DNA of 64,000 bases from Aquabacterium sp. (lineage in GTDB: Bacteria > Pseudomonadota > Gammaproteobacteria > Burkholderiales > Burkholderiaceae_C): contig NZ_JBASTH010000100.1 in assembly GCF_049274795.1 (NCBI RefSeq), forward strand, positions 31,719 to 95,718. The letters are read 5' to 3'. Positions 12,909 through 46,965 of this stretch are shown piece by piece (position 1 is the stretch's first letter; each line of letters starts with the position of its first letter). The position numbers and the translations under genes were made by a program. Under the pieces are notes generated by a model. It worked only from the letters and a program-made list of their open reading frames with translations. It had not been told where the DNA came from and made no database searches.

Positions 12909-12944
12909 GAAAAACCCTGCTGAGCGCGCCAAAGGTGCAGGGTT
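12909..12944 (-). terminator. Rho-independent terminator downstream of the SecA-like gene
   Basis: On the minus strand an 8-bp stem (AACCCTGC ... GCAGGGTT, plus-strand arms at 12913-12920 and 12937-12944) is followed by TTTTTCGCCTTTT. Confidence 0.6.
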
Positions 12945-17145: not shown

Positions 17146-17160
17146 GATGCGCCCCGCGGC

Positions 17161-24389: not shown

Positions 24390-25283
24390 ATGCCTGTTCA
24401 AGCCGATTTGCCCTCCCCCACACCCATGAGCGTTCCACACAGCGGCGCCGGTGGCGCTGATGCCACAGGTGCCGAAGGGCGTGGCGCCGTCATCGGTGTC
24501 TTCGATTCGGGGCTGGGCGGGCTGTCGGTGCTGCGCGCCATCCGCAGCCATCTGCCGCAGGCGGATCTGCTGTACGTGGCCGATTCCGGACATGCGCCCT
24601 ATGGCGAGAAATCCGATGAGTTCATCGGCGAGCGCTCGGAGCACATCTGCCGCTTTTTGATGTCGCAGGGGGCCGAGGTGGTCGTGGTGGCCTGCAACAC
24701 GGCCACGGCGGCGGCCGTGCACCACCTGCGCCAACGCTGGCCAGAGCTGCCAGTGGTGGGCGTGGAGCCCGGCGTGAAACCCGCGGTGGCGCAATCGCAC
24801 AACCAGCGCATCGGCGTGCTGGCCACGCCCTTCACCCTGCAGAGCGAGAAGTTCCGCACCTTGCTCGAACGGCATGGCGGGCAGGCCCACATCGTGCTGC
24901 AGCCCTGCCCCGGGCTGGCGCGGGAGATCGAGCAGGGCGAGCTGGATTCAGCTGCGCTGCGTGAACTGGTTCGTCAATTCAGCCAGCCGCTCACCGACGC
25001 GGGCGTGGACACCGCCGTGCTGGGCTGCACGCACTACCCCTTCGTGGCCCCGCTGTTCCAGCAGGCCCTGGGCGATGGGGTGCGCATCATCGACACCGCC
25101 GAGGCCGTGGCGCGGCAGACCGTGCGCCTGGTGCGGGACCTGCCCGCCAACCACCCCGCGCGTACAGGGGCCAGCACCGGCGGCGTGCGGCTGTGGTCCA
25201 GCGCCGATCCAGCACACCTGGCCCAGGTGGCCCACGCGTGGCTGGGCCTGAAAACACAAGCGGGCGCTCTCCCGAAGGAGTAG
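24390..25283 (+). CDS. murI: glutamate racemase
   Basis: The motifs IGVFDSGLGGLSVL, VVVACNTATA and LGCTHYPF supply both catalytic Cys motifs. The N-terminal start is uncertain. Confidence 0.85.
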   Translation: MPVQADLPSPTPMSVPHSGAGGADATGAEGRGAVIGVFDSGLGGLSVLRAIRSHLPQADLLYVADSGHAPYGEKSDEFIGERSEHICRFLMSQGAEVVVVACNTATAAAVHHLRQRWPELPVVGVEPGVKPAVAQSHNQRIGVLATPFTLQSEKFRTLLERHGGQAHIVLQPCPGLAREIEQGELDSAALRELVRQFSQPLTDAGVDTAVLGCTHYPFVAPLFQQALGDGVRIIDTAEAVARQTVRLVRDLPANHPARTGASTGGVRLWSSADPAHLAQVAHAWLGLKTQAGALPKE

Positions 25284-25355
25284 CGCCCGCCTGCCAGCCC
25301 CCTGCCCCGCTGGCGCGAGGCACGGAGGGCCGGCCGGTGTGAACCGGCCGCAGAC

Positions 25356-28300
25356 TCAGATCAGCAGATTGTTCTGGTTGTTGTCATCCAGCAATCCCTT
25401 GGTCGGATCCACCGCCAGCGACACGTTGACCGAGGATGCCTCCGTGGTCGTCGTGCTCGCTGCCGCCGTCGTCGTGGTGTCGGCTGCATGCGAGGGCTCT
25501 GCCGTGCCGCCCGCTGTGGATGTGGTCGTGTTCGCCTGCGCCGCCGTACCTGTGGCCGCACCGGAGGTGGCCGTGGTACTCGGCACGGACGATGACAAGG
25601 CATCCAGTGCCGCCGATTGACCCGGCCCGGCCAGCACATCTTCTGTGCTCAGGCCCGCCAAGCCATCCTGCGACACGGTGGTGTCACGGTGGAACCAGAC
25701 GTCGGCCATCGCGTAGGTGGAGCCGTCGACCTTGGTGTAGCTCGACACCAGGCCCAGCAGGTTGCCGTTGTCCATGTCCGTGCCGGTCTTCGCGTTGAGG
25801 TCCAGCGACAGGATGCCCAGCTCGGCCAGCGACCGCAGTTCGCCTGCACCGCTGATGCCGTCCTGGTTGGCATCGATCCAGACCTGCAGTTTGCTGAAAT
25901 CCAGATCGGCGGCATTGATGATGCCATCGCGGTTGCTGTCCAAGGCCGCGAGGGCGGCGTAGCCATTGCCGGCTCGCTGGCCTTCGGCATTGAGTGTGGA
26001 GCCACCGAAGAGTTCACTGCCGTTGCCGATCAGGCCGTCACCATTGCGGTCCATCACCAGCAGGCCATCCTGTGCCGATGCCCAGCCCACACGTGCACTG
26101 GTGTTGCCCGTGGCATTGAGGTCGAAGTACACGCCGTTGGCGCTCGAGATGGTTCTCACGCCGTCGCCGTTGAGGTCCAGCACGATCGGCGTAGCGGCCT
26201 GGTAGGCATCCAGTTGCACACCGGTCATGACCCCGATGTCGGTTGTCTCGAAGGACTGCAATTGCGTCATGGACATCGCGCGGATGTCATCGGTCTGCAG
26301 GGCCACGACCTGATCGGTCGTGAAGGCCTGGATCTGCTCCGTGGTCAGGGCCGCCGCCTGGGCGGTGGTCAGGGCCATGATCGACTGGGTCGTCAGGGCC
26401 TCGAACTGCTCTGTCGTCAGCGAGCGGATCTGGGTCGTCGTCAGGGCAGCGAACTGCGCCGTGGTCAGCACCTCGATGTCCGTCGTCTCGATGGCCTGGA
26501 TCTGCGCCGTCGTCAGTGCCGCGATCTGCGCCGTGCCGAACATGTGGATCTGGTCCGTCGTCAAGGCGGCGATGCTGTCGGTGCTCAGACCGGCGATGGC
26601 CGCCGTCGTCAGCACCACCAGATCGGTCGTCTCGATGGCCTGGATCTGCTCGGTGGTCAGGGCTGCGGCCTGTGCGCTGGTCATGGCGCGGAACTGGGCG
26701 GTTCCCAGCGCCGCGATGTCCTGCGTCTCGAAGGCATGGATCTGCTCGGTGCTCAGTGCCACCATCTGGGCCGTCGTCAGAGCGCCCACATGGTCCGTGG
26801 TCAGGGCCTGGATCTGGTCGGTTTCCAGTGCGCGGATCTGGGCTGTCGTCAGCGACTTGATCTGGGCCGTGGTCATGGCCGCCAGGTCACCCGTCTCGAT
26901 CGCCTGGATCTGGGCGGTCGACAGGGCAGCCACCTGGGCCGTGATCAGCGCCGCCACCTGTTCGCTGCTCAGTGCCGCGATGCCGTCCGTGGTCAGGCCG
27001 CGCACAGCGGCTGTCGTCAGGGCGGCCAGGTCCGTGCTTTCCAGCGCGGCCACCTGCTCGGTGGTCAGTGCGGCGACCTGGGCACTGCTCAGGGCGCGGG
27101 CCTGCAGCGTCGTCAGCGCGGCGACATCGGTCGTCTCCATCGCCTGCAGTTGCGTGGTGCTCAAGGACGCCACTTGCGCGGTCGTGAGACCGGCCACCTG
27201 CTCGGTGGTCAGGGCCTGGATCTGGTCTGTGTTCAGCGAGCGGATCTGCGCGGTGCTCAGCGATGCGATCTGTGCGGTCGTCATCGCGGCCAGGTCACCC
27301 GTCTCGATGGCGGCCACCTGCGTGGTCAACAGCGAGGCGACCTGGGCCGTGCCCAGCGCAGCCACCTGCTCGGAGCTCAGCGCAGCGATGCCGTCCGTGG
27401 TCAGGCCACGCACCGCAGCCGTCGTCAGGGCAGCCACGTCCGTGCTTTCCAGCGCAGCCACCTGCTCGGTGCTCAGCGCAGCCGTCTGGGCGCTGGTCAG
27501 TGTGCGGACCTGGGCCGTGCTCAGGGCGGCGATGTCACCCGTCTCGATCGCCCGGATCTGAGCGGTCGACAAGGCAGCCACCTGAGCGGTGGACAGCATG
27601 GCGATCTGATCAGAACTCAGCGCCGCGATGCCATCCGTGGTCAGGGCACGCACAGCGGCCGTGGTCAGCGAAGAGATGTCACCGGTTTCCAGCGCGGCCA
27701 CCTGTTCGGTGGTCAGCGCGGCGGCCTGGGCACTGGTCAGGGCACGCACCTGCGTGGTCGTCAAGGCGGCGATGTCGCCGGTCTCGACAGCCTGCAGCTG
27801 GGTGGTGGTCAGTGCGGCCACCTGGGCCGTGGTGAGCGATGCAATCTGGTCGGTTGTGAGCGACTGGATCTGATCGGTCTCCAGCGCACGGACCTGGGCC
27901 GTGGTCAGGGACTTGATCTGCGCGGTCGTCATCGCGGCCAGGTCACCCGTCTCGATGGCGGCCACCTGCGTGGTCAACAGCGAGGCGACCTGGGCCGTGC
28001 CCAGCGCAGCCACCTGCTCGGAGCTCAGCGCAGCGATACCGTCCGTGGTCAAGCCACGCACCGCGGCCGTCGTCAGGGCCGCCACGTCCGTGCTTTCCAG
28101 CGCGGCCACCTGTTCGGTGGTCAGCGCGGCGGTCTGGGCGCTGGTCAGCGTGCGGACCTGGGCCGTGGTCAGGGCAGCGATGTCACCGGTCTCGATCGCC
28201 TGGATCTGGCTGGTCGACAGGGCGGCCACCTGGGCGGTGGACAGCGACGCGATCTGGTCGGAGTTCAGTGCGGCGATGCCATCCGTGGTCAGGCCACGCA

Positions 28301-31300
28301 CCGCGGCCGTCGTCAGCGCCGCGATGTCGGTCGTCTCGATCGCGGCCACCTGTTCGGTGGTCAGCGCGGCGGCCTGGGCGCTGCTCAGGGCGGCGATCTG
28401 CGACGTGCGCAGGGCAGCGATGTCGCTGGTCTCGATCGCCTGCAACTGCGTGGTGGTCAGGGCCGCGACTTGCGCGCTGGTGAGTTCACCCACCTGCTCG
28501 GTGGTCAGCGCCTGGATCTGGTCGGTTTCCAGGGCACGGATCTGGGCCGTGGTCAGGGACTTGATCTGCGCGGTGGTCATCGCGGCCAGGTCACCCGTCT
28601 CGATGGCGGCCACCTGCGCGGTCGACAGCGACGAGATCAAGGCCGTGCCCATGGCTGCGATCTGCTCGGAGCTCAGGGCGGCGATGCCGTCCGTGGTCAG
28701 GCCACGCACTGCGGCCGTCGTCAGGGCCGCCACGTCCGTGCTTTCCAGCGCGGCCACCTGCTCGGTGGTCAGCGCGGCGGTCTGGGCGCTGGTCAGCGTA
28801 CGGACCTGGGCCGTGGTCAGGGCAGCAATGTCACCCGTCTCGATGGCCTGGATCTGGCTGGTCGACAGGGCAGCCACCTGGGCCGTCGACAGCATGGCGA
28901 TTTGATCGGAGTTCAGCGCCGCGATGCCGTCGGTGGTCAGGCCACGCACAGCGGCGGTGGTCAGCGAGGAGATGTCGCCGGTTTCCAGCGCAGCCACCTG
29001 TTCGGTGGTCAGCGCGGCGGCCTGGGCACTGCTCAGGGCACGCACCTGCGTGGTCGTCAGGGCGGCGATGTCGCCGGTCTCGACGGCCTGCAACTGCGTG
29101 GTGCTCAGCGCGGCCACCTGGGCCGTCGTGAGAGATGCGATCTGGTCGGTTGTGAGCGACTGGATCTGGTCGGTGTCCAACGCGCGGATCTGGGCCGTGG
29201 TCAGGGACTTGATCTGCGCGGTCGTCAACGCGGCCAGGTCACCCGTCTCGATCACAGCCACCTGGTTGGTCGACAGCGACGAGAGCTGCGCCGTGCCCAT
29301 GGCAGCGATCTGCTCGGAGTTCAGGGCTGCGATCGCATCCGTGGTCAGACCGCGCACCGCAGCCGTCGTCAGGGCAGCCACGTCCGTGCTTTCCAGCGCG
29401 GCCACCTGTTCGGTGGTCAGGGCGGCCGTCTGGGCGCTTGTCAGGTTGCGGACCTGCGTCGTCGTCAGGGCAGCAATGTCACCCGTCTCGATCGCCTGGA
29501 TCTGAGAGGTCGACAGCGCGGTGATCTGGGCCGTCGACAGGGATGCGATCTGGTCAGAGTTCAGTGCGGCGATACCGTCCGTGGTCAGGCCACGCACGGC
29601 GGCCGTGGTCAGTGCCGCAATGTCGGTCGTCTCGATCGCGGCCACCTGTTCGGTGGTCAGGGCGGCGGCCTGGGCGCTGCTCAGGGCACGCACCTGCGTG
29701 GTGGTCAGCGCGGCGATGTCGGTCGTCTCGACGGCCTGCAACTGGGTGGTGCTCAGGGCGGCCACCTGGGCCGTCGTGAGGGCGGCCACCTGATCCGTGG
29801 TCAGGGCCTGGATCTGGTCGGTTTCCAGTGCACGGACCTGGGCTGTGCTCAGGGACTTGATCTGCGTGGTCGTCATCGCGGCCAGGTCACCCGTCTCGAT
29901 GGCGGCCACCTGCGTGGTCGACAGCGACGAGACCTGGGCCGTGCCCAGTGCCGCGATCTGGTCGGTGTTCAGGGCTTCGATCGCATTCGTGGTCAGGCCA
30001 CGCACCGCAGCGGTGCTCAGGGCCGCCACGTCGGTGCTTTCCATCGCAGCGACCTGTTCGGTGGTCAGCGCGGCCGCTTGGGCACTGGTCAGGGCACGCA
30101 CCTGCGTCGTCGTCAGGGCGACGATGTCGTCCGTGGCGATCGACTGGATCTGCGTGGTCGTGAGGCTCACCACCTGCGCGGTGGTCAGGCTGGCGACCTG
30201 CTCGGTGATCAGGGCCACCAGTTGGTCCGTGTTCAGGGCGCGGATCTGGGCCGTGCTCATGGCCTTGATCTGCGTCGTGGTCAGGGCCGAGATGTCACCG
30301 GTTTCGATGGCCGCCACCTGCGTGGTCGACAGGCTGGCCACCTGCGCGGTGGTCAGCGATGCGATCTGCTCGGAGTTCAGCGCAGCGATGGCATCCGTGC
30401 TCAGGCCGCGGATCGCCGCTGTGGTCAGCGCCGCCAGGTCGTTGCTTTCCATCGCAGCCACCTGCTCGGTGGTCAGCGCGGCCGTCTGGGCACTGGTCAG
30501 ATTGCGGACCTGGGCGGTGGTCAGCGCAGCGATGTCACCGGTCTCGATGGCCTGGATCTGGCTGGTCGACAGGGCGGCCACCTGGGCGGTGGACAGCGAC
30601 GCGATCTGGTCGGAGTTCAGTGCGGCGATGCCATCCGTGGTCAGGCCACGAACAGCCGCCGTGCTCAGCGCGGCGATGTCGGTGGTTTCGATCGCGGCCA
30701 CCTGTTCGGTGGTCAGGGCTGCCGCCTGGGCGCTGCTCAGGGCCGCGATCTGCGCGGTTCGCAGGGCAGCGATGTCGCTGGTCTCGATGGCCTGCAGTTG
30801 GGTGGTGCTCAGGGCGGCCACCTGGGCGCTGGTGAGTTCACCCACCTGCTCGGTGGTCAGGGCCTGGATTTGATCGGTGTTCAGCGCGCGGATCTGCGCG
30901 GTGCTCAAGGACTTGATCTGGGCGGTCGTCAGCGCTGCCAGGTCACCCGTTTCTATGGCAGCCACCTGCGTGGTCGACAGCGAGGCGAGCTGGGCCGTGC
31001 CCATGGCGCCGATCTGCTCGGAACTCAGGGCTGCGATGGCATCCGTGCTCAGGCCACGCACCGCAGCCGTGGTCAGGGCGGCCACATCCGTGCTTTCCAG
31101 CGCGGCCACCTGCTCGGTCGTCAGGGCCGCTGTCTGGGCGCTGGTCAGCGTACGGACCTGGGCCGTGCTCAGGGCCGCGATGTCGCCGGTCTCGATCGCC
31201 TGGATCTGGCTGGTCGATAGGGCGGCCACCTGGGCCGTGGACAGCATGGCGATCTGGTCGGAGCTCAGGGCCGCGATGCCGTCGGTGGTCAGGCCACGCA

Positions 31301-34300
31301 CGGCTGCCGTGCTCAAGGCCGCAATGTCGCCGGTTTCCAGCGCCGCCACCTGCTCAGTGGTCAGGGCAGCCGTCTGGGCGCTGCTCAGGGCCGCGATCTG
31401 CGCGGTGCGCAGGGCAGCGATGTCGCTGGTTTCGATGGCCTGCAACTGGGTGGTGCTCAGTGCCGCGATCTGTGCGCTGGTGAGCTCACCCACCTGCTCG
31501 GTCGTCAGGGCCTGGATCTGGTCCGTGTTCAGCGCGCGGATCTGCGCGGTGCTCAGCGATTTGATCTGGGCGGTCGTCAGCGCGGCCAGGTCACCTGTTT
31601 CGATGGCGGCCACCTGGGCGGTCGACAGCGAGGCGAGCTGGGCCGTGCCCATGGCGCCGATCTGCTCGGAGCTCAGGGCTGCAATGGCATCCGTGCTCAG
31701 GCCACGCACCGCGGCCGTCGTCAGGGCGGCCACGTCCGTGCTTTCCAGCGCAGCCACCTGCTCGGTGGTCAGGGCGGCGGTCTGGGCGCTTGTCAGGTTG
31801 CGGACTTGGGCCGTGGTCAGGGCAGCGATGTCACCCGTCTCGATCGCCTGGATCTGGCTGCTCGACAGGGCGGCCACCTGGGCCGTGGACAGCGCAGCGA
31901 TCTGGTCAGAGCTCAGGGCGGCGATGGCCTCGGTGCTCAGACCGCGCACAGCGGCGGTGGTCAGCGAAGAGATGTCGCCGGTCTCCAGCGCAGCCACCTG
32001 TTCCGTGGTCAGGGCTGCAGCCTGGGCGCTGCTCAGGGCACGTACTTGCGTGGTCGTCAGCGCGGCGATGTCGCCGGTTTCGACGGCCTGCAACTGGGTG
32101 GTGCTCAGCGCGGCCACCTGGGCCGTCGTGAGGGATGCGATCTGGTCGGTTGTGAGCGACTGGATCTGGTCGGTGTCCAGCGCGCGGATCTGGGCCGTGC
32201 TCAGGGACTTGATCTGCGTGGTCGTCAGCGCGGCCAGGTCACCCGTTTCGATGGCGGCCACCTGCGCGGTCGACAGCGAGGCGAGCTGGGCCGTGCCCAT
32301 GGCGCCGATCTGCTCGGAGCTCAGGGCCGCGATCGCATCCGTGGTCAGACCGCGCACCGCAGCCGTGGTCAGGGCGGCCACGTCCGTGCTTTCCAGCGCG
32401 GCCACCTGCTCGGTGGTCAGGGCGGCCGTCTGGGCGCTGGTCAGGGTGCGAACCTGGCTGGTGGTCAGCGCAGCGATGTCACCTGTCTCGATGGCCTGGA
32501 TTTGAGCCGTCGTGAGCGCCCCAACCTGTGCCGTCGACAACGTGGCGATCTGGTCGGAGTTCAAGGCCGCAATGGCGTCGGTGCTCAGACCGCGCATGGC
32601 GGCGGTGGTCAGCGAGGAGATGTCGCCAGTCTCCAGCGCGGCTACCTGCTCTGTGGTCAGGGCTGCTACCTGGGCGCTGCTCAGCGCGCGCACCTGGGTG
32701 GTCGTCAAGGCGGCGATGTCGCCGGTTTCAACGGCCTGGAGCTGGGTGGTGCTCAACGCGGCCACCTGGGCGGTCGTGAGAGAGGCAACCTGCTCGGTGC
32801 TCAACGACTGAATCTGGTCGGTCTCCAGCGCACGGACCTGGGCCGTGGTCAGGGCCTTGACCTGGTTGGTCGTCAGCGCGGCCAGATCACCTGTCTCGAT
32901 GGCGGCCACCTGCGTGGTCGACAGCGAGGCGAGCTGAGCCGTGCCCAGCGCGGCGATCTGCTCGGTGCTCAGCGCGGCGATGGCATCTGTGGTCAAGCCA
33001 CGCACTGCGGCCGTGCTCATCGAGGACAGCGCGCTCGTGCTGATGGCGGCGACCTGATCGGTGGTCAGGGCAGCCGCCTGCGCGCTGGTCAGCGCCCTCA
33101 CCTGTGTGGTGGTCAGGGCGGCAATGTCTTCCGTCTGGATGGCCTGAACCTGGTCGGTCTTGAAGGCCGTGGCCTGCGCCGTGGTCAGCGCACCCACCTG
33201 CTGCGTGCTGAAGGCCTGGACCTGGTCCGTGGTCAAGGACTGGATCTGGGCGGTGGTGAGCGCCTTGACCTGGTCCGTCGTCAGGGCAGAGAAATCACCG
33301 GTTTCGATGGCCTTGACCTGACTGGTCGTGAGGGCCGCCACCTGGCTGGTGGCCAAGGCGGCCACCTGTTCGGAGCTGAGTGCGGCGATGCCGTCGGTGG
33401 TCAGGCCACGAACAGCGGCTGTCGTCAGCGCGGCCACGTCCGTGCTTTCCAGCGCGGCGACTTGGTCGGTGGTCAGGGCGGCCGTCTGGGCGCTGGTCAG
33501 CGTACGGACCTGCGCGGTGGTCAGGGCAGCGATGTCACCGGTCTCGATGGCCTGCACCTGGCTGGTCGACAGGGCCGCCACCTGGGCGGTGGCGAGTGCA
33601 GCGATCTGGTCGGAGCTGAGGGCTGCCATGCCGTCGGTCGTCAGGCCGCGCACGGCGGCCGTGGTCAGCGCGGAAATGTCGCCCGTTTCGATCGCAGCCA
33701 CCTGTTCGGTGGTCAATGCGGCCGTCTGGGCGCTGCTCAGGGCACGCACCTGGGTGGTCGTCAGGGCCGCGATGTCGCTGGTCTCGATGGCCTGGACCTG
33801 CGTGGTCGTCAGGGCCGCCACCTGCGAGCTGGTCAGCACGCCGACCTGCTCGGTCGTCAGCGCCTGGATCTGATCCGTCTCCAGGGCACGTACCTGTGTG
33901 GAAGACAACGACTTGACCTGGTTGGTCGTCATCGCGGCCAGGTCACCCGTCTCGATGGCGGCCACCTGGGCCGTCGACAAGGCCACGACCTGGCTGGTGC
34001 CCAGCACCGCGATCTGTTCAGAGGTCAGGGCCGCAATGCCGTCGGTGCTGATCGCACGCACGGCTGCCGTGGTCAGGGCGGCGATGCCGCTCGTTTCGAT
34101 CGCAGCCACCTGCTCGGTGGTCAGGGCTGCGGCCTGGGCGCTGCTCAGGGCGCGCACCTGGGCCGTGGTCAGCACCGCGATGTCTTCGGTCTGGATCGCC
34201 TGCACCTGCGTGGTGGAGAAGGCTGCCACCTGGGTGCTGCTCAGGGCGGCCACCTGGTCGGTGCTCAGCGCCTCGACGGATGCGGTCGTCAGCGCCCTCA

Positions 34301-34529
34301 CCTGCGCCGTGTTCAGCACCCGGATGTGCTCGACCTGGAAGGCCTGGATCTGGTCCGTGGCCAGAATGGCCAGATCCGTGGTTTCAATGGCTTTGACCTG
34401 GGTGGTCGTCAAGGCCGCAATCTGCTCCGTACTGAACGCTTGCCAGTCTTCGGTCGTCAACCTGGCAATGGTAGTGGTCGACAGCGAAGCGATCTGTGTC
34501 GTTGACAGCGAATCGATGATTGAAGCCAT
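25356..34529 (-). CDS. giant (~3057 aa) octapeptide-repeat protein with a C-terminal Ca-binding/T1SS-type secretion region; predicted type I secretion substrate
   Basis: About 2770 aa consist of the 8-residue repeat L-[TS]-[TS]-x-Q-[VI]-x-[AS], starting within about 10 residues of the N-terminus (MASIIDSLSTTQIASLSTTTIARL). The last 276 aa are non-repetitive, with D-x-[ND]-x-D-G motifs (DLNGDG, DRNGDGLI, SNRDGII, DANQDGI), a Thr-rich tract and an acidic/polar C-terminal end (...LLDDNNQNNLLI). No Sec signal is present. T1SS genes lie nearby. I prefer the ATG at 34529. Confidence 0.85.
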   Translation of the reverse strand: MASIIDSLSTTQIASLSTTTIARLTTEDWQAFSTEQIAALTTTQVKAIETTDLAILATDQIQAFQVEHIRVLNTAQVRALTTASVEALSTDQVAALSSTQVAAFSTTQVQAIQTEDIAVLTTAQVRALSSAQAAALTTEQVAAIETSGIAALTTAAVRAISTDGIAALTSEQIAVLGTSQVVALSTAQVAAIETGDLAAMTTNQVKSLSSTQVRALETDQIQALTTEQVGVLTSSQVAALTTTQVQAIETSDIAALTTTQVRALSSAQTAALTTEQVAAIETGDISALTTAAVRGLTTDGMAALSSDQIAALATAQVAALSTSQVQAIETGDIAALTTAQVRTLTSAQTAALTTDQVAALESTDVAALTTAAVRGLTTDGIAALSSEQVAALATSQVAALTTSQVKAIETGDFSALTTDQVKALTTAQIQSLTTDQVQAFSTQQVGALTTAQATAFKTDQVQAIQTEDIAALTTTQVRALTSAQAAALTTDQVAAISTSALSSMSTAAVRGLTTDAIAALSTEQIAALGTAQLASLSTTQVAAIETGDLAALTTNQVKALTTAQVRALETDQIQSLSTEQVASLTTAQVAALSTTQLQAVETGDIAALTTTQVRALSSAQVAALTTEQVAALETGDISSLTTAAMRGLSTDAIAALNSDQIATLSTAQVGALTTAQIQAIETGDIAALTTSQVRTLTSAQTAALTTEQVAALESTDVAALTTAAVRGLTTDAIAALSSEQIGAMGTAQLASLSTAQVAAIETGDLAALTTTQIKSLSTAQIRALDTDQIQSLTTDQIASLTTAQVAALSTTQLQAVETGDIAALTTTQVRALSSAQAAALTTEQVAALETGDISSLTTAAVRGLSTEAIAALSSDQIAALSTAQVAALSSSQIQAIETGDIAALTTAQVRNLTSAQTAALTTEQVAALESTDVAALTTAAVRGLSTDAIAALSSEQIGAMGTAQLASLSTAQVAAIETGDLAALTTAQIKSLSTAQIRALNTDQIQALTTEQVGELTSAQIAALSTTQLQAIETSDIAALRTAQIAALSSAQTAALTTEQVAALETGDIAALSTAAVRGLTTDGIAALSSDQIAMLSTAQVAALSTSQIQAIETGDIAALSTAQVRTLTSAQTAALTTEQVAALESTDVAALTTAAVRGLSTDAIAALSSEQIGAMGTAQLASLSTTQVAAIETGDLAALTTAQIKSLSTAQIRALNTDQIQALTTEQVGELTSAQVAALSTTQLQAIETSDIAALRTAQIAALSSAQAAALTTEQVAAIETTDIAALSTAAVRGLTTDGIAALNSDQIASLSTAQVAALSTSQIQAIETGDIAALTTAQVRNLTSAQTAALTTEQVAAMESNDLAALTTAAIRGLSTDAIAALNSEQIASLTTAQVASLSTTQVAAIETGDISALTTTQIKAMSTAQIRALNTDQLVALITEQVASLTTAQVVSLTTTQIQSIATDDIVALTTTQVRALTSAQAAALTTEQVAAMESTDVAALSTAAVRGLTTNAIEALNTDQIAALGTAQVSSLSTTQVAAIETGDLAAMTTTQIKSLSTAQVRALETDQIQALTTDQVAALTTAQVAALSTTQLQAVETTDIAALTTTQVRALSSAQAAALTTEQVAAIETTDIAALTTAAVRGLTTDGIAALNSDQIASLSTAQITALSTSQIQAIETGDIAALTTTQVRNLTSAQTAALTTEQVAALESTDVAALTTAAVRGLTTDAIAALNSEQIAAMGTAQLSSLSTNQVAVIETGDLAALTTAQIKSLTTAQIRALDTDQIQSLTTDQIASLTTAQVAALSTTQLQAVETGDIAALTTTQVRALSSAQAAALTTEQVAALETGDISSLTTAAVRGLTTDGIAALNSDQIAMLSTAQVAALSTSQIQAIETGDIAALTTAQVRTLTSAQTAALTTEQVAALESTDVAALTTAAVRGLTTDGIAALSSEQIAAMGTALISSLSTAQVAAIETGDLAAMTTAQIKSLTTAQIRALETDQIQALTTEQVGELTSAQVAALTTTQLQAIETSDIAALRTSQIAALSSAQAAALTTEQVAAIETTDIAALTTAAVRGLTTDGIAALNSDQIASLSTAQVAALSTSQIQAIETGDIAALTTAQVRTLTSAQTAALTTEQVAALESTDVAALTTAAVRGLTTDGIAALSSEQVAALGTAQVASLLTTQVAAIETGDLAAMTTAQIKSLTTAQVRALETDQIQSLTTDQIASLTTAQVAALTTTQLQAVETGDIAALTTTQVRALTSAQAAALTTEQVAALETGDISSLTTAAVRALTTDGIAALSSDQIAMLSTAQVAALSTAQIRAIETGDIAALSTAQVRTLTSAQTAALSTEQVAALESTDVAALTTAAVRGLTTDGIAALSSEQVAALGTAQVASLLTTQVAAIETGDLAAMTTAQIASLSTAQIRSLNTDQIQALTTEQVAGLTTAQVASLSTTQLQAMETTDVAALTTLQARALSSAQVAALTTEQVAALESTDLAALTTAAVRGLTTDGIAALSSEQVAALITAQVAALSTAQIQAIETGDLAAMTTAQIKSLTTAQIRALETDQIQALTTDHVGALTTAQMVALSTEQIHAFETQDIAALGTAQFRAMTSAQAAALTTEQIQAIETTDLVVLTTAAIAGLSTDSIAALTTDQIHMFGTAQIAALTTAQIQAIETTDIEVLTTAQFAALTTTQIRSLTTEQFEALTTQSIMALTTAQAAALTTEQIQAFTTDQVVALQTDDIRAMSMTQLQSFETTDIGVMTGVQLDAYQAATPIVLDLNGDGVRTISSANGVYFDLNATGNTSARVGWASAQDGLLVMDRNGDGLIGNGSELFGGSTLNAEGQRAGNGYAALAALDSNRDGIINAADLDFSKLQVWIDANQDGISGAGELRSLAELGILSLDLNAKTGTDMDNGNLLGLVSSYTKVDGSTYAMADVWFHRDTTVSQDGLAGLSTEDVLAGPGQSAALDALSSSVPSTTATSGAATGTAAQANTTTSTAGGTAEPSHAADTTTTAAASTTTTEASSVNVSLAVDPTKGLLDDNNQNNLLI
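26215..34510 (-). repeat. coding tandem repeat array: 24-nt unit nested in 648-nt super-repeats
   Basis: The 24-nt (8-codon) periodicity runs throughout. The string TCA[TA]CGCGGCCAGGTCACCCGTCTCGAT recurs at 27281, 27929, 28577, 29225 and 29873, which is exactly 648 bp (27 octads) apart. Flanking super-repeats vary in length, for example a 408-bp (17-octad) step to 30281. Confidence 0.9.
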
Positions 34530-34784
34530 GGGAAACCCCGGTAAAACTTGATGAGGCATGAACCGGGACGCTGAGAGCGTGAGCACCGGTCCATGCGGAT
34601 GACTGGCCGTTATGAACAGTGATGGACGGTGATGAGCTTAGAAAGCCCTGCAAGGAGCAAGACCGGAAATACCGCCCTCAATCCCTGCCATCTCCGTCAC
34701 CGCCCAAAAAATGAGCTACGGACGTCTTATCGGTTGGGAAAACCATGTCTTTAGTAACGTTCTTCAAACGAGCACGGCATCACG

Positions 34785-36782
34785 ATGCGCGGCACCATGT
34801 ACTGGTCCCGTCATTTCGGCCACTTCATGACTTCCATCACGACCATGCCTGCGACCCCAGACACGCCGCACGACATCAGCGGGCACCCCGCCCCCTCGGA
34901 GCTGCCTCCCGTCCTGGACCAGTCATTCCTGATGAAGGCCATCGAACTGCAGGGCGCTGGCCAGGAAGCCGAGGCCGAGCGCCGTTTCAGGCAGTACCTG
35001 GAGGCCAACCCGCTCGATCCGATCGCCGTGTATTCGCTGGCGGTGATCTTGCTCAAGCGGGGCGAAGTGGGCGTGGCCCTGCCCCTGCTGGCCCAGGCCA
35101 CCCAGCGCACGCCCGGGTTCGCGCCCCTGTGGGCGGCCTACGCATCGGCCCAGCAATCGCTCGGGTTGCGTGACGAAGCCCTGGCCAGCTACGACCAGGC
35201 CCTGGCCGCCAAGCCCGACTACATCGAGGCGCTGGTCAACAGCGGCGCGCTGCTGCGCGAAACCCATCAGCACCTGGCCGCTCTGGAGCGCTTCAACAAG
35301 GTGCTCACGATCAACCCCAACTACGAGAGCGCCCTGGGCAACTGTGCAATCTTGCTCACGGAGTTCAAGCGCAGCGAACAGGCCATCGCCATGTTCCAGC
35401 GCCTGCTGGCCATCAACCCCCGCTACGACTACGGCCAGGGCCTGCTTTCCTACGAACGCCTGCACGCCTGCGACTGGACCGATTTCGATGCCAGCTCCGC
35501 CCGCATCATCGAAGGCGTGCGCAACGGAGAGCGCGTCTGCAAGTCGCTGGGTTTCATGGCCCTGTCCGATTCGGCCGAAGACCATCAAAGCTGCGCCCGC
35601 ATCTTCGCCGCGCACCGCTTTCCGCCCGCCGCCCCCCTGTGGAAGGGCGAGCGCTACAAGCACGACCGCATCCGCATCGCCTATGTGTCACCCGACCTGC
35701 GCGAGCACCCCGTCGGCCATTTGATGGCGGGCATCTTCGAGCACCACGACAAGCGCCGCTTCGAGACCATCGCCATCTCGCTGGGCATTGACGACAACAG
35801 CCGCCTGCGCACGCGCATGCTCAATGCCTTCGACCACTTCGTCGACGCCCGGCAGATGAACACCCGCCAGATCGCGCAGGTGATGCGCGACATGGAAGTG
35901 GACGTGGCCATCGACCTGGCCGGCTACACCTCGGATTCGCGCACCGATGTGTTCTCGCACCGCCCGGCCCCCGTGCAGGCGAACTACCTGGGCTACCCCG
36001 GCACGCTCGGCCTGGACTGCATGGACTACATCATCGCGGACCGCCATGTGATCCCGCCGGAGCACCAGGCCTTCTACGACGAGAAGGTGGTCTACCTGCC
36101 CGATGCCTACCTGCCGACCGACAGCGGCCTGCAGATCGCCGAGCACACGCCCACCCGCGCCGAATGCGGCCTGCCCGACGAGGGCGTCGTGTTCTGCTCG
36201 TTCAACCACGACTACAAGATCTCCCCGCACATCTTCGAGGTGTGGATGAGACTGCTGCGCCAGGTGCCGGGCAGTGTGCTGTGGCTGATGTCACGCAACG
36301 AGCTGTCGCAGAAGAACCTGCGCCAACATGCCGAGCGCCTGGGTGTGAGCCCTGAGCGCCTGATATTCGCCCAGCGCGTCCCCCGGGTCGAGGATCACCT
36401 CGCGCGCTACCGCCAGGCCGACATGTTCCTGGACACGCACCCCTACAACGCCCACACCACCGCCGCCGATGCCCTGATGGCCGGCCTGCCCATCGTGACC
36501 TGCATGGGCCAGGCCTTCCCGGCCCGCGTGGCCGGCAGCCTGCTGCACGCCATGGGCATGCCCGAACTGATCACCCAGAGCCTGGCCGGCTACGAAGCCC
36601 TGGCCCTGGCCCTGGCCAAGGATCCGGCCCGGCTGGCCGACGTCAAGGCGCGGCTGGCCCAGAAGAGGGCCAACACGCCCCTGTTCGACACCCCCAACTT
36701 CTGCCGCAACCTGGAAGCCATCTACACCGCCATGTGGCGCAAGGCCCAGCTCGCAGGCGCCACGGACGAACTGGCAGGCTGA
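34785..36782 (+). CDS. TPR-repeat + GT41 (OGT/SPINDLY-like) protein glycosyltransferase
   Basis: The N-terminal half has TPR repeats (AVYSLAVILLKRGEVGVALPLLAQA..., YIEALVNSGALL, YESALGNCAIL). The C-terminal half fits the GT41 pattern (RIRIAYVSPDLREHPVGHL...VQANYLGYPGTLG...VVFCSFNHDYKISPHIFEVWMRLLRQVPGSVLWL...DTHPYNAHTTAADALMAGLPIVT). It is divergent from the giant repeat gene. The start is uncertain (34785, 34827 or 34845). Confidence 0.8.
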   Translation: MRGTMYWSRHFGHFMTSITTMPATPDTPHDISGHPAPSELPPVLDQSFLMKAIELQGAGQEAEAERRFRQYLEANPLDPIAVYSLAVILLKRGEVGVALPLLAQATQRTPGFAPLWAAYASAQQSLGLRDEALASYDQALAAKPDYIEALVNSGALLRETHQHLAALERFNKVLTINPNYESALGNCAILLTEFKRSEQAIAMFQRLLAINPRYDYGQGLLSYERLHACDWTDFDASSARIIEGVRNGERVCKSLGFMALSDSAEDHQSCARIFAAHRFPPAAPLWKGERYKHDRIRIAYVSPDLREHPVGHLMAGIFEHHDKRRFETIAISLGIDDNSRLRTRMLNAFDHFVDARQMNTRQIAQVMRDMEVDVAIDLAGYTSDSRTDVFSHRPAPVQANYLGYPGTLGLDCMDYIIADRHVIPPEHQAFYDEKVVYLPDAYLPTDSGLQIAEHTPTRAECGLPDEGVVFCSFNHDYKISPHIFEVWMRLLRQVPGSVLWLMSRNELSQKNLRQHAERLGVSPERLIFAQRVPRVEDHLARYRQADMFLDTHPYNAHTTAADALMAGLPIVTCMGQAFPARVAGSLLHAMGMPELITQSLAGYEALALALAKDPARLADVKARLAQKRANTPLFDTPNFCRNLEAIYTAMWRKAQLAGATDELAG

Positions 36783-36785: not shown

Positions 36786-38021
36786 ATGTCCACCACCACC
36801 CTCGACAACCCCGCCATCGCCGCTGCCATGCAGATGGCCTACGACGCCATCAGGAAGGGCAACCTCCAGAAGGCCGATCTGCTGTGCCGGCAGGCCCTGG
36901 CGCAGGACTCAGGCCTGGGCGTGGCGTGGCAACTGCTCGCGGTGATCGCCCACCGTGTCGGCGCCAACGACCTGGCGCTGCAGTACGACACCGCGGCGCG
37001 CCAGCATTTGTCCGGCTCCGAGAGCGTGCTGCCGCTGCCGCTGCCACCGCGTGCGCAGCCCACCACACCCCGCTACCTGCTCATCAAGGCCTGGGGGTTC
37101 GGCTTCTGGGCTGATCTGGACCATGTCTATGGCGCACTGCTGCTGGCCGAACTCACCGGCCGCATCCCGCTCGTGCACTGGGGGCGCAACAGCCTGTTCC
37201 GGGGCCCTGACACCGTCAACGCCTTCGAATGCTTCTTCGAGCCCGTGTCGGGCCTGAAGTGGGCTGACCTGATCGAACCCGAGATCAGCTACTTTCCCGC
37301 CAAGTGGAACGCTGAGAACCTGTCGCGCGAGGATCACCAGAAGTGGAGCGGGCAGGGCTCGCGCCTCACGGGGTTGTACGGCCTGGAGCGCCCCGAGAAC
37401 GTCGTCGTCAGCGACTTCCACATCAAGTTGAACGACCTGATGCCCTGGATCCCGGCATCAAGCCCCCTGTACGGCCTGGACCGCAACAGCCTCTACCGCT
37501 ACCTGAGCCAGAAGTACATCCGCCTGCGATCGGAGCAGGTCGCCAAGGTGGATGCCTGGTGGCAGGCCCGCATGGCCGGGCGCCCCTGGCTGGCCGTGCA
37601 CGTGCGCGGCACCGACAAGACGCAGGAAGTCGCCCACCTGGCAGAGCTCAACGCGGCCTACGCCACGCGCATCGACCAGATCCTGAGCGTCCACCCCAGC
37701 CTGTCCATCTTCCTGATGACCGACAGCGAGCAGATCCTCCAGGAATACAAGGCGCGTTACGGCAACAAGGTCGCGTTCACCGACTGCCAGCGCGGCAAAG
37801 GCCAGACCGGCGTCCACCTGGAGGGACACCCCGGCATCCTGATGGGCGAGCAGGTGATCCTGGACGCCTACCTGGCCACGCGCTGCGATTTCTTCCTGGG
37901 CAATGGCAGCTCCAACGTGTCCACCGGGATCCGGCACCTGAAGAACTGGCGTAAAGGCACCTTCTTCGTCGTCGGCCCGGATTTTCTGGGCGAGACTGAC
38001 CTGTCCCTGCACGAATGGTGA
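36786..38021 (+). CDS. putative fucosyltransferase-like (GT11/23/65-superfamily-like) glycosyltransferase
   Basis: The 411-aa product has WLAVHVRGTDK, which resembles the H-x-R-R-G-D fucosyltransferase motif, and a C-terminal CDFFLGNGSSNVS that resembles the S/T-F-S motif. It starts 3 nt after the GT41 gene. The family assignment comes from motif resemblance only. Confidence 0.45.
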   Translation: MSTTTLDNPAIAAAMQMAYDAIRKGNLQKADLLCRQALAQDSGLGVAWQLLAVIAHRVGANDLALQYDTAARQHLSGSESVLPLPLPPRAQPTTPRYLLIKAWGFGFWADLDHVYGALLLAELTGRIPLVHWGRNSLFRGPDTVNAFECFFEPVSGLKWADLIEPEISYFPAKWNAENLSREDHQKWSGQGSRLTGLYGLERPENVVVSDFHIKLNDLMPWIPASSPLYGLDRNSLYRYLSQKYIRLRSEQVAKVDAWWQARMAGRPWLAVHVRGTDKTQEVAHLAELNAAYATRIDQILSVHPSLSIFLMTDSEQILQEYKARYGNKVAFTDCQRGKGQTGVHLEGHPGILMGEQVILDAYLATRCDFFLGNGSSNVSTGIRHLKNWRKGTFFVVGPDFLGETDLSLHEW

Positions 38022-40042
38022 CCGCCTCCATGCACGCTACCGCCATGCCCCGCGTCCTGATCGACGGCGTCTTCTTCCAGATCGGCCGCTCGGGCATTGC
38101 CCGGGTGTGGACCAAGCTGCTGACCGAATGGGCGCGCAGTGGCGTGGCCGCACAGGTGAGCGTGCTGGACCGTGCCGGCACCTTCCCCCCGGTGCCGGGT
38201 ATCCAGGTGGTGGCGGGCCCCGCCTTCAGCTACCAAGACATGGACGGCGACCGACAACGCCTGCAGCAGATCTGCGATGAGCTGCGGATCGAGGTGTTCA
38301 TCTCCACCTACTACACCAGCCCCATCAGCACCCCCACGCTGATGATGGTGCACGACATGATCCCCGAGGTGCTGGGCTGGCCGCTGGACGAACCCATGTG
38401 GCGCCAGAAGCAGGCCGCGATGGCCAGTGCGAACCAGTTCGTGTGCGTGTCCCACAACACCGCGGCTGATCTGAAGCGCCATCTGGCACACATGGGCGGC
38501 AGCGAGCGCCCGGTGAGCGTGGCCCCCAACGGCTGCGACTTCATACCGCCCGACGCCGCCACGCTCGACCACTTCCGCCAACGCCATGGCCTGCAGCGCC
38601 CCTACTTCCTGCTGTCGGGCAGCCGTGGCGACTACAAGAACGGCAAGCTCTTCTTCGAGGCTTTCTCCCTGCTGGGGGAAGAACGCAGCCGCTACACCAT
38701 CCTGTGCACGGGCGGCGGCACCGTCGAGCCTGAACTCCTGGCCCTGGCCGAAGGCGCGGAGGTCAAGGTCGGCATCCTGGGCGAAGCCGACATGGCCTGC
38801 GCCTACGCCGGCGCAATCGGCCTGGCCTATCCCTCGCTGTACGAAGGCTTCGGCCTGCCCGTGCTGGAGGCGATGGCCTGCGGCTGCCCTGTCGTCACGA
38901 CCAATGTGGCCTCCTTGCCCGAAGTGGGCGGCGACGCGGTGCTGTACGTCACGCCCGGGCCGGATGCAGCACGGCAGATGCGCGATGGCCTGCTGAAGAT
39001 CCAGGAGCCCGCCACGCGCGACGCACTCATCCAGCGCGGCCTGGTCCAGGCGAGCCGGTACCGCTGGGACACGATGGCCGTGCAGGTGGCGCAGGCACTG
39101 CAGGCCGTGGCTACTGCAGCAGCCACGGCCCAGGCCGCCCATTCGACGCCAGCAGCCATGCCCACCAAGCTTCATCCAAGCGACCAGTTGATCGAACACC
39201 CCGGCTACCGCATCGCCCTGCCCGCCGATCACCTTCTGCCCCAGTACCAGCAGCAACACCGTCTGTACGACCGCTTCCTGCCAGTGCTCGCGCAAGCCCT
39301 GTCACCCGGAAGTGCGGCCATCGACGTCGGCGCGAACTGCGGCGACACCGTGGCGGCGATGTTCGCGGCCAACCCTGCCCTCACCTACCTGTGCGTTGAG
39401 CCCGACTCGGGTTTCTTCAGCTACCTGCAGCACAACGCACAGCTCATCCGCACTCGGCATCCGCAAGCCCGCATCCACAACGTGCAGGCTCTGGTCGGCC
39501 GGCCAGGCGCCAGCGCCGTGCTCGATGGTGGTGGGGGCAGCAAACATGCCCGCCCGCTGAACCAGGCAGCCGCGTCCGAACCCGCCACTGGTGAGGTGCA
39601 CCACACCATCACCATGGACGACATTGCCCTGGCCGCCTTGCAAGGCGAGCTCTCACAGATCCGCCTGCTCAAGTCGGACGTCGATGGCTTCGACCACGAC
39701 GTGCTGGGCTCGGCATCTCAGATCATCGCCAGCAGCCAGCCGCTGCTGTTCTTCGAATGCCAGGCCGTGGACGAACAGCAACTGGCGTCCTACAAGCGCT
39801 GCATCGACGCCCTGGCGGCTCAGGGCTACGAGCAGTTCTGGCTGATCGACAACTATGGCAACCCCATGCTGAGCACCCGAGAGCCGAAGGCCGTGCAGCA
39901 GATGTTCGACTACATCTGGCGCCAGGGTCGCCACAATGCCACGCGGTCGATCTACTACGTCGACATCCTCGCCTCTTCAGCGCGTGACACGGCGCTGGCC
40001 GATGAGACAGTGCGCCACTTCGTGGCACAGACCTGCCGTTGA
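38015..40042 (+). CDS. bifunctional GT4-family glycosyltransferase / FkbM-family methyltransferase
   Basis: The N-terminal half has the GT4 E-x7-E region (PSLYEGFGLPVLEAMACGCPVVTTNVASLPEV). The C-terminal half looks FkbM-like (AIDVGANCGDTVAAMF...IRLLKSDVDGFDHDVL). Its start overlaps the upstream stop (ATGGTGA). Confidence 0.75.
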   Translation: MVTASMHATAMPRVLIDGVFFQIGRSGIARVWTKLLTEWARSGVAAQVSVLDRAGTFPPVPGIQVVAGPAFSYQDMDGDRQRLQQICDELRIEVFISTYYTSPISTPTLMMVHDMIPEVLGWPLDEPMWRQKQAAMASANQFVCVSHNTAADLKRHLAHMGGSERPVSVAPNGCDFIPPDAATLDHFRQRHGLQRPYFLLSGSRGDYKNGKLFFEAFSLLGEERSRYTILCTGGGTVEPELLALAEGAEVKVGILGEADMACAYAGAIGLAYPSLYEGFGLPVLEAMACGCPVVTTNVASLPEVGGDAVLYVTPGPDAARQMRDGLLKIQEPATRDALIQRGLVQASRYRWDTMAVQVAQALQAVATAAATAQAAHSTPAAMPTKLHPSDQLIEHPGYRIALPADHLLPQYQQQHRLYDRFLPVLAQALSPGSAAIDVGANCGDTVAAMFAANPALTYLCVEPDSGFFSYLQHNAQLIRTRHPQARIHNVQALVGRPGASAVLDGGGGSKHARPLNQAAASEPATGEVHHTITMDDIALAALQGELSQIRLLKSDVDGFDHDVLGSASQIIASSQPLLFFECQAVDEQQLASYKRCIDALAAQGYEQFWLIDNYGNPMLSTREPKAVQQMFDYIWRQGRHNATRSIYYVDILASSARDTALADETVRHFVAQTCR

Positions 40043-40125: not shown

Positions 40126-40944
40126 TCAGGTCGGCAGCTCCAGCCGCCCCAGATTGCGCGGCAGCCCACCGATGTCCACCTTGCGTGGTGGCGCCTCCGG
40201 CAGCAGCACAGGAGGCTCTCGCCGCAGCAAGGGCACCCAGAAGGGCATGTTGTAGCGCCACCAGGCATGCCCGCCCATCGGCAGTTGCCCACCATTGGAT
40301 GCCAGGTACTCGTTCGGCTTGAGCTCCAGCGAGAAGCGCGAAGCGGTCAGCTCATCGGGCAGCGTGAACCGTTCCGAGAGCGGTCCCATCAGCGAGAAGA
40401 ACAGGTCTTCGCTCGACCCGGTTTCCGAGAAGAACCACAGCGCCTCCGGGAACTCATCGAGCAGCTCGATACAGCGCGCCGAGCGGCGCAGGCTGAAGCC
40501 GCCATTGCCGACCTTCGTGCTCACCAGCCGTCCCGCGTCCCCGCGGAATCTGTCCACGCGAACATCCAGCTCGATCCCGTTGGGCCAGGGCGCCCCCACA
40601 TAGTCATACGGCTGGGCGCACCAGTGATCCAGATCGTCCCGCAGCACGATGACATCGGTCTGCAGGATCAACATGAACTCGTGCGATGCGTAGCGCTCAT
40701 AGAAGCCACGGCTCATCAGCAGACGGCTGTAATCCCGCACCGAGGTGAAGCTGGTGTCAGCAAAGCGGTCCACCGCGATATGGGGATGGCGGGCCAGGTG
40801 GGCGGACATGTCCAGGCTGTCGGGCGCAATGAAACGTACCTCGCGCGCCGCAAGGGTTTCGAGCGAATAGCCCAGGGAGAACTGCTCCAGCTCACTGAGC
40901 TCCGCCTTGTAGATCGGCACCAGCACGATGACTTTGCTGTTCAC
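40126..40944 (-). CDS. DUF5672-like protein (putative glycosyltransferase-associated)
   Basis: The pattern VLVPIYKAELSELEQFSL...FMLILQTDVIVLRDDLDHWCAQPYDYVGAPW...VGNGGFSLRR resembles DUF5672. I prefer the GTG at 40944, which is preceded by GGAGA; the longer ORF reaches 41007. Confidence 0.55.
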   Translation of the reverse strand: MNSKVIVLVPIYKAELSELEQFSLGYSLETLAAREVRFIAPDSLDMSAHLARHPHIAVDRFADTSFTSVRDYSRLLMSRGFYERYASHEFMLILQTDVIVLRDDLDHWCAQPYDYVGAPWPNGIELDVRVDRFRGDAGRLVSTKVGNGGFSLRRSARCIELLDEFPEALWFFSETGSSEDLFFSLMGPLSERFTLPDELTASRFSLELKPNEYLASNGGQLPMGGHAWWRYNMPFWVPLLRREPPVLLPEAPPRKVDIGGLPRNLGRLELPT

Positions 40945-40982
40945 AGTCTCTCCATCAGATATTGTTTCGGTCTGCCAGGCAC

Positions 40983-42389: not shown

Positions 42390-42393
42390 GGCG

Positions 42394-43626: not shown

Positions 43627-43629
43627 GGC

Positions 43630-46011: not shown

Positions 46012-46175
46012 AAGGGATGGCAACACCAGCCTTTTCCCTCTTGAGCACGGCCAGCGCTGTCGCCACGCACCAAACCGGGAACTGCACACGATTTCCGGGC
46101 CTATTGCCCCGGATGTCCGGCGCTCGCAGAACTAAGCTGTCGAGCAACATCGGCCCACGGCCCCACGAGACAGAC

Positions 46176-46922: not shown

Positions 46923-46965
46923 CATGTCCCGTACCGCTCGCCCCGTCTGCTTTCCGGAGTCCGCC

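Follow-up and report, generated by a model that had tools for sequence, protein, structure and literature searches.

A giant ALTTAQ-repeat protein of Aquabacterium sp. encoded beside glycosyltransferase and type I secretion genes

LapA, MpIBP, RsaA and SwmA are RTX adhesins or S-layer proteins that leave the cell by type I secretion, and among the glycosyltransferases of family GT41, HMW1C is known to be linked to its substrate, the HMW1 adhesin. To our knowledge, the native substrates of bacterial OGT homologues, which are also GT41 enzymes, are largely unknown. In this study, a stretch of 64,000 nucleotides from Aquabacterium sp. (contig NZ_JBASTH010000100.1, positions 31,719 to 95,718 of the forward strand; hereafter the window) was analysed. 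A 9.2-kb gene on its minus strand encodes a giant protein, in which a long array of eight-residue repeats (octads) of the Pfam family ALTTAQ_rpt is followed by a domain homologous to FrpC's self-processing module (SPM). Genes for a GT41 glycosyltransferase and for a type I secretion system (T1SS) lie close by.

Two further described systems are relevant to this protein. In the SPM of FrpC, the side-chain carboxylate of Asp414 attacks its own carbonyl, yielding an anhydride (PMC7078468). The alpha-helical screw is a fold with just one natural example (7QLR) in the PDB; in its designed HeliScrew form, Ser/Thr constitutes the helix N-cap and Pro occupies N1 (bioRxiv 10.64898/2025.12.04.691947).

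The reading that we consider best, and regard as fairly probable, is that the giant protein is a type-I-secreted, probably O-glycosylated, acidic fibre folded as an alpha-helical screw.

The giant gene and its octad array

The gene and its repeated parts are as follows (amino acid numbers of the giant protein count from the GTG that opens the reading frame):

25356-34586, minus strand: giant ALTTAQ-repeat protein gene (open reading frame list and translation; Pfam ALTTAQ_rpt, 2560.8 bits)
26205-34508, minus strand: array of 346 octads of the type L-[TS]-[TS]-x-Q-[VI]-x-A, aa 27-2794 (register counts and octad table)
30045-32636, minus strand: super-repeat phase block A, aa 651-1514, four 648-bp units with 78-89% DNA identity (identity matrix and lag profile)
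26805-30044, minus strand: super-repeat phase block B, aa 1515-2594, five 648-bp units with 79-89% DNA identity (identity matrix)

The minus-strand open reading frame (ORF) 25356-34586 comprises 3076 codons and a stop when counted from GTG 34586. The probable start is ATG 34529 (MASIIDS..., 3057 aa), since a JGI gene call (metagenome 3300079876, contig Ga0654478_0000039, 84 kb) begins there and has this length, and the N-termini of orthologs (MA(T)SII.SL) begin alike. MASIIDS leads straight into the octads, the first of which lies at roughly residue 8 when counted from this ATG.

A first-pass annotation, made from the sequence without database searches, had described nearly the whole 9.2-kb gene as an octad repeat, and the count agrees with this: 346 consecutive octads form one unbroken register of 2768 residues with 0 register shifts. 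The minus-strand orientation of the gene had gone unmentioned there. L/I/M/F/V occupies position 1 in all 346 octads, T or S position 3 in 343 (99%), V/I/L position 6 in 314 and A/S/G position 8 in 319, while T (151), S (88) and E (64) are the main residues of position 2, and Q (230) and D (62) those of position 5. The array contains no Cys, Pro or Tyr and is acidic (Asp+Glu 244 versus Lys+Arg 78).

At the DNA level, self-identity of the giant gene reaches 0.77 at a lag of 648 bp, as opposed to 0.22 at lags of 647 and 649, which confirms the 648-bp (27-octad) super-period noticed earlier. The anchor strings reported at 27281, 27929, 28577, 29225 and 29873 were found as well (the same ~48-mer at each position, within phase block B), and the proposed 10+7+10 grouping was recovered from the I/V-E-T-x-D octads, spaced by 10, 7 and 10. 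The description of the units as exact or near-identical did not hold, exactness being confined to the period: at the DNA level the units share 78-89% identity, and exact repeats within the gene reach 116 bp at most. Phase blocks A and B are mutually offset by a partial unit, and the three N-terminal units share just 50-66% identity with the remaining ones.

Acidic x-E-[TS]-x-D octads form a distinct class and recur at intervals of 4, 6 or 7 octads. Position-2 Glu and position-5 Asp occur together 57 times, Glu alone seven times and Asp alone five times. Such octads may represent Ca2+ sites repeated along the rod, or marks on its surface.

Short-read contigs often end within the gene and long ORFs mirror it on the plus strand (e.g. 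25617-31220; up to 1867 aa), and the array could in principle be an assembly artefact, a collapsed or expanded repeat, or non-coding on the minus strand. We regard this as highly improbable. An ortholog from an independently assembled metagenome-assembled genome (MAG) (locus L006, JBMOQM010000042) has an equal length, with 0 indels over 2799 aa, and shares 97.2% protein and 95.1% DNA identity with the window gene. Codon differences between the two (303 synonymous versus 77 non-synonymous; dS 0.15, dN/dS 0.10) reveal purifying selection and, together with the lack of indels, mean that each octad has been conserved in place. Moreover, the longest exact repeat is short, an ortholog of 3036 aa is present in the complete genome of Sphaerotilus microaerophilus, and Pfam and homologue hits fall only in the minus-strand frame. 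The plus-strand mirror ORFs were rejected as genes, as their G/R/L/Q-rich translations are by-products of a GC-rich repeat.

Judged by this comparison, the array is stable and under selection, and is neither an artefact nor hypervariable at the evolutionary distance of the MAG ortholog. The expectation of a hypervariable copy number was thus not borne out by an ortholog at 95% nucleotide identity, and the possibility of an assembly artefact is answered by the match in length to an independent MAG. Between species, the repeat part ranges from ~400 to >3300 aa (median 2463 aa where the 5' end is visible), and most orthologs have an unbroken octad register over 2000-3400 aa. The warning that short-read assemblies are unreliable here was justified: of 80 reference-genome loci, 34 have a contig end within the gene, and short-read Logan contigs of the window locus break within it. 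Genes that combine ALTTAQ repeats with an SPM (ALTTAQ-SPM genes) are frequent breakpoints of short-read assemblies from freshwater Burkholderiales, and they are mislabelled in NCBI. Many family members bear the NCBI label "heme utilization protein" and some the JGI label "trimeric autotransporter adhesin"; no support was found here for either.

Several genomes contain tandem pairs of ALTTAQ-SPM genes (reference-genome loci L079, L028, L067, L021 and L022), and in Paucibacter sp. DJ2R-2 the repeat parts of two tandem genes measure 2969 and 2811 aa. In a metagenome contig (L005, 3507-11266), the ALTTAQ-SPM gene was called as five consecutive same-strand pieces of 531, 291, 988, 267 and 421 aa, and two GT41 genes and methyltransferase genes lie near it.

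Repeat family and predicted fold

The repeats matched Pfam PF20080 (ALTTAQ_rpt) with 2560.8 bits against a cutoff of 26.4, in 102 stretches. By this profile match the octads belong to a catalogued but uncharacterised family, and the protein is a new large member and not a new kind of repeat. The first-pass annotation had been unable to name a repeat family; PF20080 provides one, although not a known structure, as no natural member has been solved. Other Pfam hits on the repeats (HTH_25, CAAP1 and LRR_EndoS, with 0 significant stretches) and hits to LRR/VLR structures in the PDB were rejected as low-complexity noise. An NCBIfam search of the giant protein returned nothing useful. In the literature searched, no paper mentioning ALTTAQ or PF20080 was found, and searches with octapeptide and solenoid terms gave nothing relevant.

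When one super-repeat was used to query 1.84 billion representative proteins, 2125 clusters were retrieved at E<=1e-3, 199 of them also at E<=1e-30. Most of the top matches are devoid of the C-terminal domain of the giant protein and have ALTTAQ repeats joined to Ig-like, CBM60, RTX, FlgD-Ig or beta-propeller modules. Since these are extracellular modules, a role of the repeats as an extracellular stalk or spacer would fit. The architecture of PF20080 followed by an SPM (PF26745) is common to hundreds of Burkholderiales proteins, from which the window protein does not differ in kind; it is a large representative, with 346 octads.

In AlphaFold2 models, each octad is predicted to form one helix of 5-6 residues and a linker of 2-3 residues (DSSP of the models). 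The best model of a 432-aa fragment had a pLDDT of 94.1 and a pTM of 0.79, and a 120-aa fragment reached 93.8 and 0.85, respectively. The only sequence relative of the octads with a solved structure is the designed protein HeliScrew4 (9ZEM), which is 43% identical to them over 111 residues without gaps (E 1e-17 in phmmer, 8e-27 in BLASTP). Both share an 8-residue period (consensus LTPEQIAA in HeliScrew4 versus LTTEQVAA in the octads) with one short helix per repeat, predicted in the case of the octads, and the octad logo has apolar core positions and a Ser/Thr N-cap position, as in a HeliScrew-type 8-mer. HeliScrew4, however, is a designed protein of 120 aa, with Pro at position 3 in contrast to the Thr/Ser of the natural repeat. 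The natural array exceeds it 23-fold in length and is interspersed with acidic x-E-T-x-D octads.

Mapped on this fold, positions 1, 6 and 8 of the octad would form the apolar core, whereas position 2 would be the helix N-cap and position 5 (Q/D) would complete the capping box. Because position 2 would be structural in this comparison, the near-invariant position 3 is the only candidate for a displayed or modified hydroxyl. The idea of a long, regular, solenoid-like fibre put forward in the first-pass annotation is supported by the predicted helix in each octad and from the gap-free alignment with HeliScrew4, whereas its rows of exposed Thr/Ser hydroxyls are narrowed to position 3. If so, ALTTAQ repeats look like natural versions of the alpha-helical screw, regarded by designers as structural "dark matter": a fold with a single natural example in the PDB would be present in more than 2000 protein clusters, and a single screw would run here for 2768 residues without a phase slip.

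The SPM-like domain and the C-terminal tail

Downstream of the array, three features were distinguished:

26187-26192, minus strand: Thr2799-Pro2800, equivalent of the scissile Asp414-Pro415 of FrpC (the 6SJW alignment begins at Pro)
25662-26189, minus strand: predicted SPM-like Ca2+-binding domain, aa 2800-2975 (phmmer against 6SJW/6SJX; homologues with PF26745)
25359-25661, minus strand: Ser/Thr/Ala-rich tail with an acidic patch and a hydrophobic end (...LLDDNNQNNLLI) (composition; conserved end)

Residues 2800-2969 (~170 residues) match the FrpC self-processing module (PDB 6SJW/6SJX) with an E-value of 2e-44 in phmmer, and homologues of this domain carry Pfam PF26745 "SPM". In the pairwise alignment with 6SJW, read by eye, W451, W519 and D579 are conserved and an Asp occupies the position mapped to FrpC D419. 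An alignment of 36 SPM sequences contains 34 invariant columns, D42 among them, and the invariant columns were hand-mapped to FrpC D419, G424, W451, D456, D462, N464, E474, G477, W519, D521, E532 and D579. With the residue roles described for the FrpC SPM, including the EF-hand-like Ca2+ ligands (PMC7078468), these alignments indicate that the Ca2+ ligands and the W451/W519 pair are kept.

The window domain thus resembles the SPM of FrpC and ApxIVA in fold homology, Ca2+ ligands and Trp pair, but differs from it at two positions. Thr-Pro takes the place of the scissile Asp-Pro, and the 101 best homologues have Thr (59) or Ser (42), but never Asp, ahead of the Pro. Gly takes the place of D478 (ELFGGST versus ELFGDNT), a position that is variable across the ALTTAQ-SPM class; in FrpC, D478 helps to form a proposed fifth Ca2+ site and its change to Ala reduces processing (PMC7078468). 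The location differs too: the window domain follows the ALTTAQ rod and sits 277 residues before the C-terminus. When metagenomes were scanned for the Asp-Pro form, 66 SPM-like domains were obtained, none of which follows ALTTAQ octads; the majority are located some hundreds of residues after the N-terminus, and in many a long stretch of protein follows.

These data bear on a clip-and-link mechanism, as in FrpC and ApxIVA, by which Ca2+ would cause the SPM to cut before Pro2800, free a 2799-residue rod and leave a reactive C-terminus for cross-linking. The strong SPM homology, the conserved Ca2+ ligands and both Trp residues speak for such an activity, and the tight constraint ahead of the Pro (Ser/Thr in 101/101 homologues) argues for a functional junction. 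The mechanism, however, needs the carboxylate of Asp414 (PMC7078468), and both this residue and Asp478 are replaced, so that canonical Asp-Pro cleavage is unlikely. Asp-Pro was seen in 0/101 sequences of the ALTTAQ class, and conversely ALTTAQ octads precede 0/66 of the metagenome Asp-Pro SPMs. Since Asp is absent from the junctions of this class, any cleavage would need a different chemistry, and we consider clip-and-link an unlikely explanation of the giant protein. The SPM is used for "NeissLock" protein ligation, and the sequences described here represent a large natural subclass in which the catalytic Asp is always Ser/Thr, and which is either inactive or employs a different chemistry.

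The C-terminal tail is composed of 101 residues (33% S+T). An acidic patch, followed by PLI/LLI at the extreme C-terminus, is conserved across the homologous loci. Protease-type substrates of type I secretion have acidic-plus-hydrophobic C-terminal ends, which the end of the tail resembles, and the tail is probably the type I secretion signal.

Neighbouring genes, glycosylation and export

The giant gene is flanked by an intergenic region, beyond which lie genes for glycosyltransferases and the T1SS:

34587-34784, no strand: intergenic region from which the giant gene and the glycosyltransferase operon diverge (sequence)
34785-36782, plus strand: tetratricopeptide repeat (TPR) and GT41 glycosyltransferase, OGT type (Pfam Glyco_transf_41, 293.8 bits, with N-terminal TPRs)
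36786-38021, plus strand: NodZ/FUT8-like (fucosyltransferase-fold) glycosyltransferase (Pfam NodZ below cutoff; PDB 2HHC NodZ, E 2e-10)
38015-40042, plus strand: fusion of a GT4 glycosyltransferase and an FkbM methyltransferase (profile matches)
40126-41007, minus strand: DUF5672 protein, conserved in the cluster (Pfam, 151.9 bits; adjoins GT41 in loci L206, L207 and L208)
40983-42479, minus strand: TolC-family outer-membrane factor of the T1SS (Pfam OEP; TIGR01844 below cutoff)
42394-43626, minus strand: HlyD/AprE-type periplasmic adaptor of the T1SS (TIGR01843, 321 bits versus a cutoff of 208.65; Beta-barrel_AprE)
43630-46089, minus strand: T1SS ABC permease/ATPase of the LssB type (TIGR03375, 787 bits versus a cutoff of 693.1)

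No sigma-70 consensus was found in the divergent intergenic region 34587-34784, and a promoter and terminator scan of 25000-35000 returned 0 promoter-like sites and one terminator-like site, below the shuffle counts. The three last-named genes make up a complete type I secretion set (ABC, HlyD and TolC) at 40983-46089; the ORF of the LssB-type ABC protein has 819 codons, while the JGI call gives 767 aa. The GT41 protein is very similar to human OGT (E 4.5e-106) and XcOGT (E 1e-93), with which it shares the TPR-GT41 architecture of the OGT/SPINDLY enzymes, and it is encoded here beside a Ser/Thr-rich, putatively secreted protein. In five homologues (P0273, P0279, P0282, P0283 and P0285; 1017-1073 aa), GT41 is fused to a NodZ-like part (PF05830), and the existence of such fusions functionally links the GT41 and NodZ-like genes of the window. 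The NodZ-like, GT4-FkbM and DUF5672 partners suggest a longer, methylated or deoxy-sugar glycan and not a single O-GlcNAc. Just past the ABC gene, a DegT/DesI-type sugar aminotransferase (46780-48132, plus strand) and an unannotated 301-aa ORF (46017-46922, plus strand) were noted, whose products may provide this glycan with an amino or deoxy sugar.

The cluster is found again, in rearranged form, in many genera of Burkholderiales. In an Ideonella MAG the whole set is present, rearranged downstream of the ALTTAQ-SPM gene. Starting from GT41, three homologues, chosen only for their long contigs, were inspected (Sphaerotilus microaerophilus, complete genome, giant protein of 3036 aa; an Aquabacterium MAG, 3923 aa; and a Polaromonas MAG). 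All three adjoin a giant ALTTAQ-SPM gene, DUF5672, methyltransferase and T1SS genes, and an epimerase gene is present in two of them (Sphaerotilus and Aquabacterium). The GT41 gene thus stays beside the ALTTAQ gene through rearrangements in several genera of Burkholderiales. Starting from the SPM, 81 other loci were surveyed within a visible range of +-10 kb, much of which is filled by the giant gene; they contained 14 homologues of GT41, 18 of TolC, 12 of ABC and 10 of HlyD, and the Ideonella MAG is among them.

These surveys bear on the question of whether the glycosyltransferases may act on a polysaccharide, lipopolysaccharide or another protein, with the ALTTAQ protein secreted unglycosylated. 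T1SS substrates are generally unmodified, unfolded chains, position-2 Thr/Ser can be explained as a helix N-cap, and most of the 81 loci are without GT41 in their visible flanks. Those 10-kb flanks, however, are occupied in large part by the giant gene itself, TPR-GT41 enzymes (human OGT, SPINDLY) are protein O-glycosyltransferases, and the GT41 gene accompanied the ALTTAQ gene in all three look-ups and across several genera. An unglycosylated protein is therefore, in our opinion, a tenable but less probable alternative. The window GT41 differs from OGT, XcOGT and HMW1C in having only a candidate substrate, the ALTTAQ protein, suggested by the conserved gene neighbourhood. A conserved GT41 gene beside a Ser/Thr-rich, putatively secreted protein nominates a substrate for a bacterial OGT. 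A literature search for GT41 with type I secretion found nothing relevant, and one for bacterial OGT returned only general OGT papers, naming no substrate and making no link to such a protein or to secretion.

Under the preferred reading of a secreted, glycosylated screw, each of the 346 octads would contribute one short helix to a continuous alpha-helical rod (solenoid). GT41 would O-glycosylate Ser/Thr of the unfolded protein in the cytoplasm, acting together with the NodZ-like, GT4-FkbM and DUF5672 proteins, and position-3 Thr/Ser and the S/T-rich tail are the candidate sites. The protein would then be exported C-terminus first through the adjacent LssB/HlyD/TolC system, as its context and conserved C-terminal end suggest. 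Outside the cell, the SPM-like domain would fold on Ca2+ and serve as a folding nucleus or ratchet in place of RTX repeats. The product would probably be a surface or matrix fibre, or a spacer, of biofilm-forming Burkholderiales of the Rubrivivax-Roseateles-Aquabacterium-Sphaerotilus group. A link to the sheath nanofibrils of Leptothrix/Sphaerotilus found no support in the one paper that was retrieved.

Several points weigh against this reading. The AlphaFold2 alignments were shallow, being assembled from the repeats of the protein itself, and pLDDT varied widely across the five models of the 432-aa fragment, from 94 down to 42. Foldseek searches of the PDB with the 432-aa and 120-aa models gave no significant match and returned neither 9ZEM nor 7QLR; the hits were weak (best mesothelin, TM 0.34, E 0.18; also ARM-like). 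No anchoring or retention module is visible in the giant protein. The passage of glycosylated substrates through a T1SS duct is unusual, and the glycosyltransferases of the cluster could act on another substrate. Finally, the strict presence of Ser/Thr ahead of the SPM Pro points to a function that is left unaccounted for in this reading.

A more far-reaching version, which we put forward only tentatively and hold to be rather unlikely, would be a hitherto undescribed glycosylation and secretion system. In it, GT41, NodZ-like, GT4-FkbM and DUF5672 proteins would decorate position-3 Thr/Ser in hundreds of octads before type I export, and the Ser/Thr-Pro SPM would clip or anchor the fibre by means of a hydroxyl nucleophile (e.g. 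through a strain-driven N-to-O acyl shift), unlike the Asp anhydride of FrpC. The rod would then be an abundant natural counterpart of the alpha-helical screw.

The giant protein was also compared with LapA, MpIBP, RsaA and SwmA. It resembles them in being giant, repetitive and acidic, apparently without a signal peptide, and in having an adjacent set of ABC, membrane fusion and outer-membrane proteins and a (here predicted) Ca2+-binding C-terminal region. Unlike RTX adhesins, it is without RTX nonapeptides, Ig-like or cadherin extenders and an N-terminal retention module, and its extender is a predicted alpha-helical octad screw. A cell-anchored adhesin of the LapA or ice-binding RTX type, whose Thr rows would bind ice, mineral or a surface directly, would account for a giant, acidic, T1SS-linked protein, and its richness in Thr and Ala calls to mind the Thr-based faces used for ice binding. 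Pfam, however, reported no hit to HemolysinCabind (the RTX nonapeptide GGxGxDxUx) at E<=1 and no N-terminal retention domain, and the start of the array at about residue 8 leaves no room for a signal or retention module. Furthermore, the repeats are predicted to be alpha-helical and not a beta-solenoid, and no ligand-binding module was seen. On these grounds the giant protein is not an RTX protein or a LapA-type adhesin, and this alternative appears most improbable.

A second giant gene is located in the window at 4308-11561 (minus strand). It encodes a protein of 2417 aa with DUF4347 and many cadherin/Big_9 domains, without RTX or SPM motifs. Its neighbours at 11589-18696 and 2761-4311 (both minus strand) form an unusual export set consisting of a HlyD protein, a 678-aa SecA-like protein (SecA_DEAD and a preprotein-binding domain), a PqqD+Peptidase_M50+HlyD fusion and a GAF+HlyD protein, and a PAS-GGDEF cyclase is encoded on the other side.

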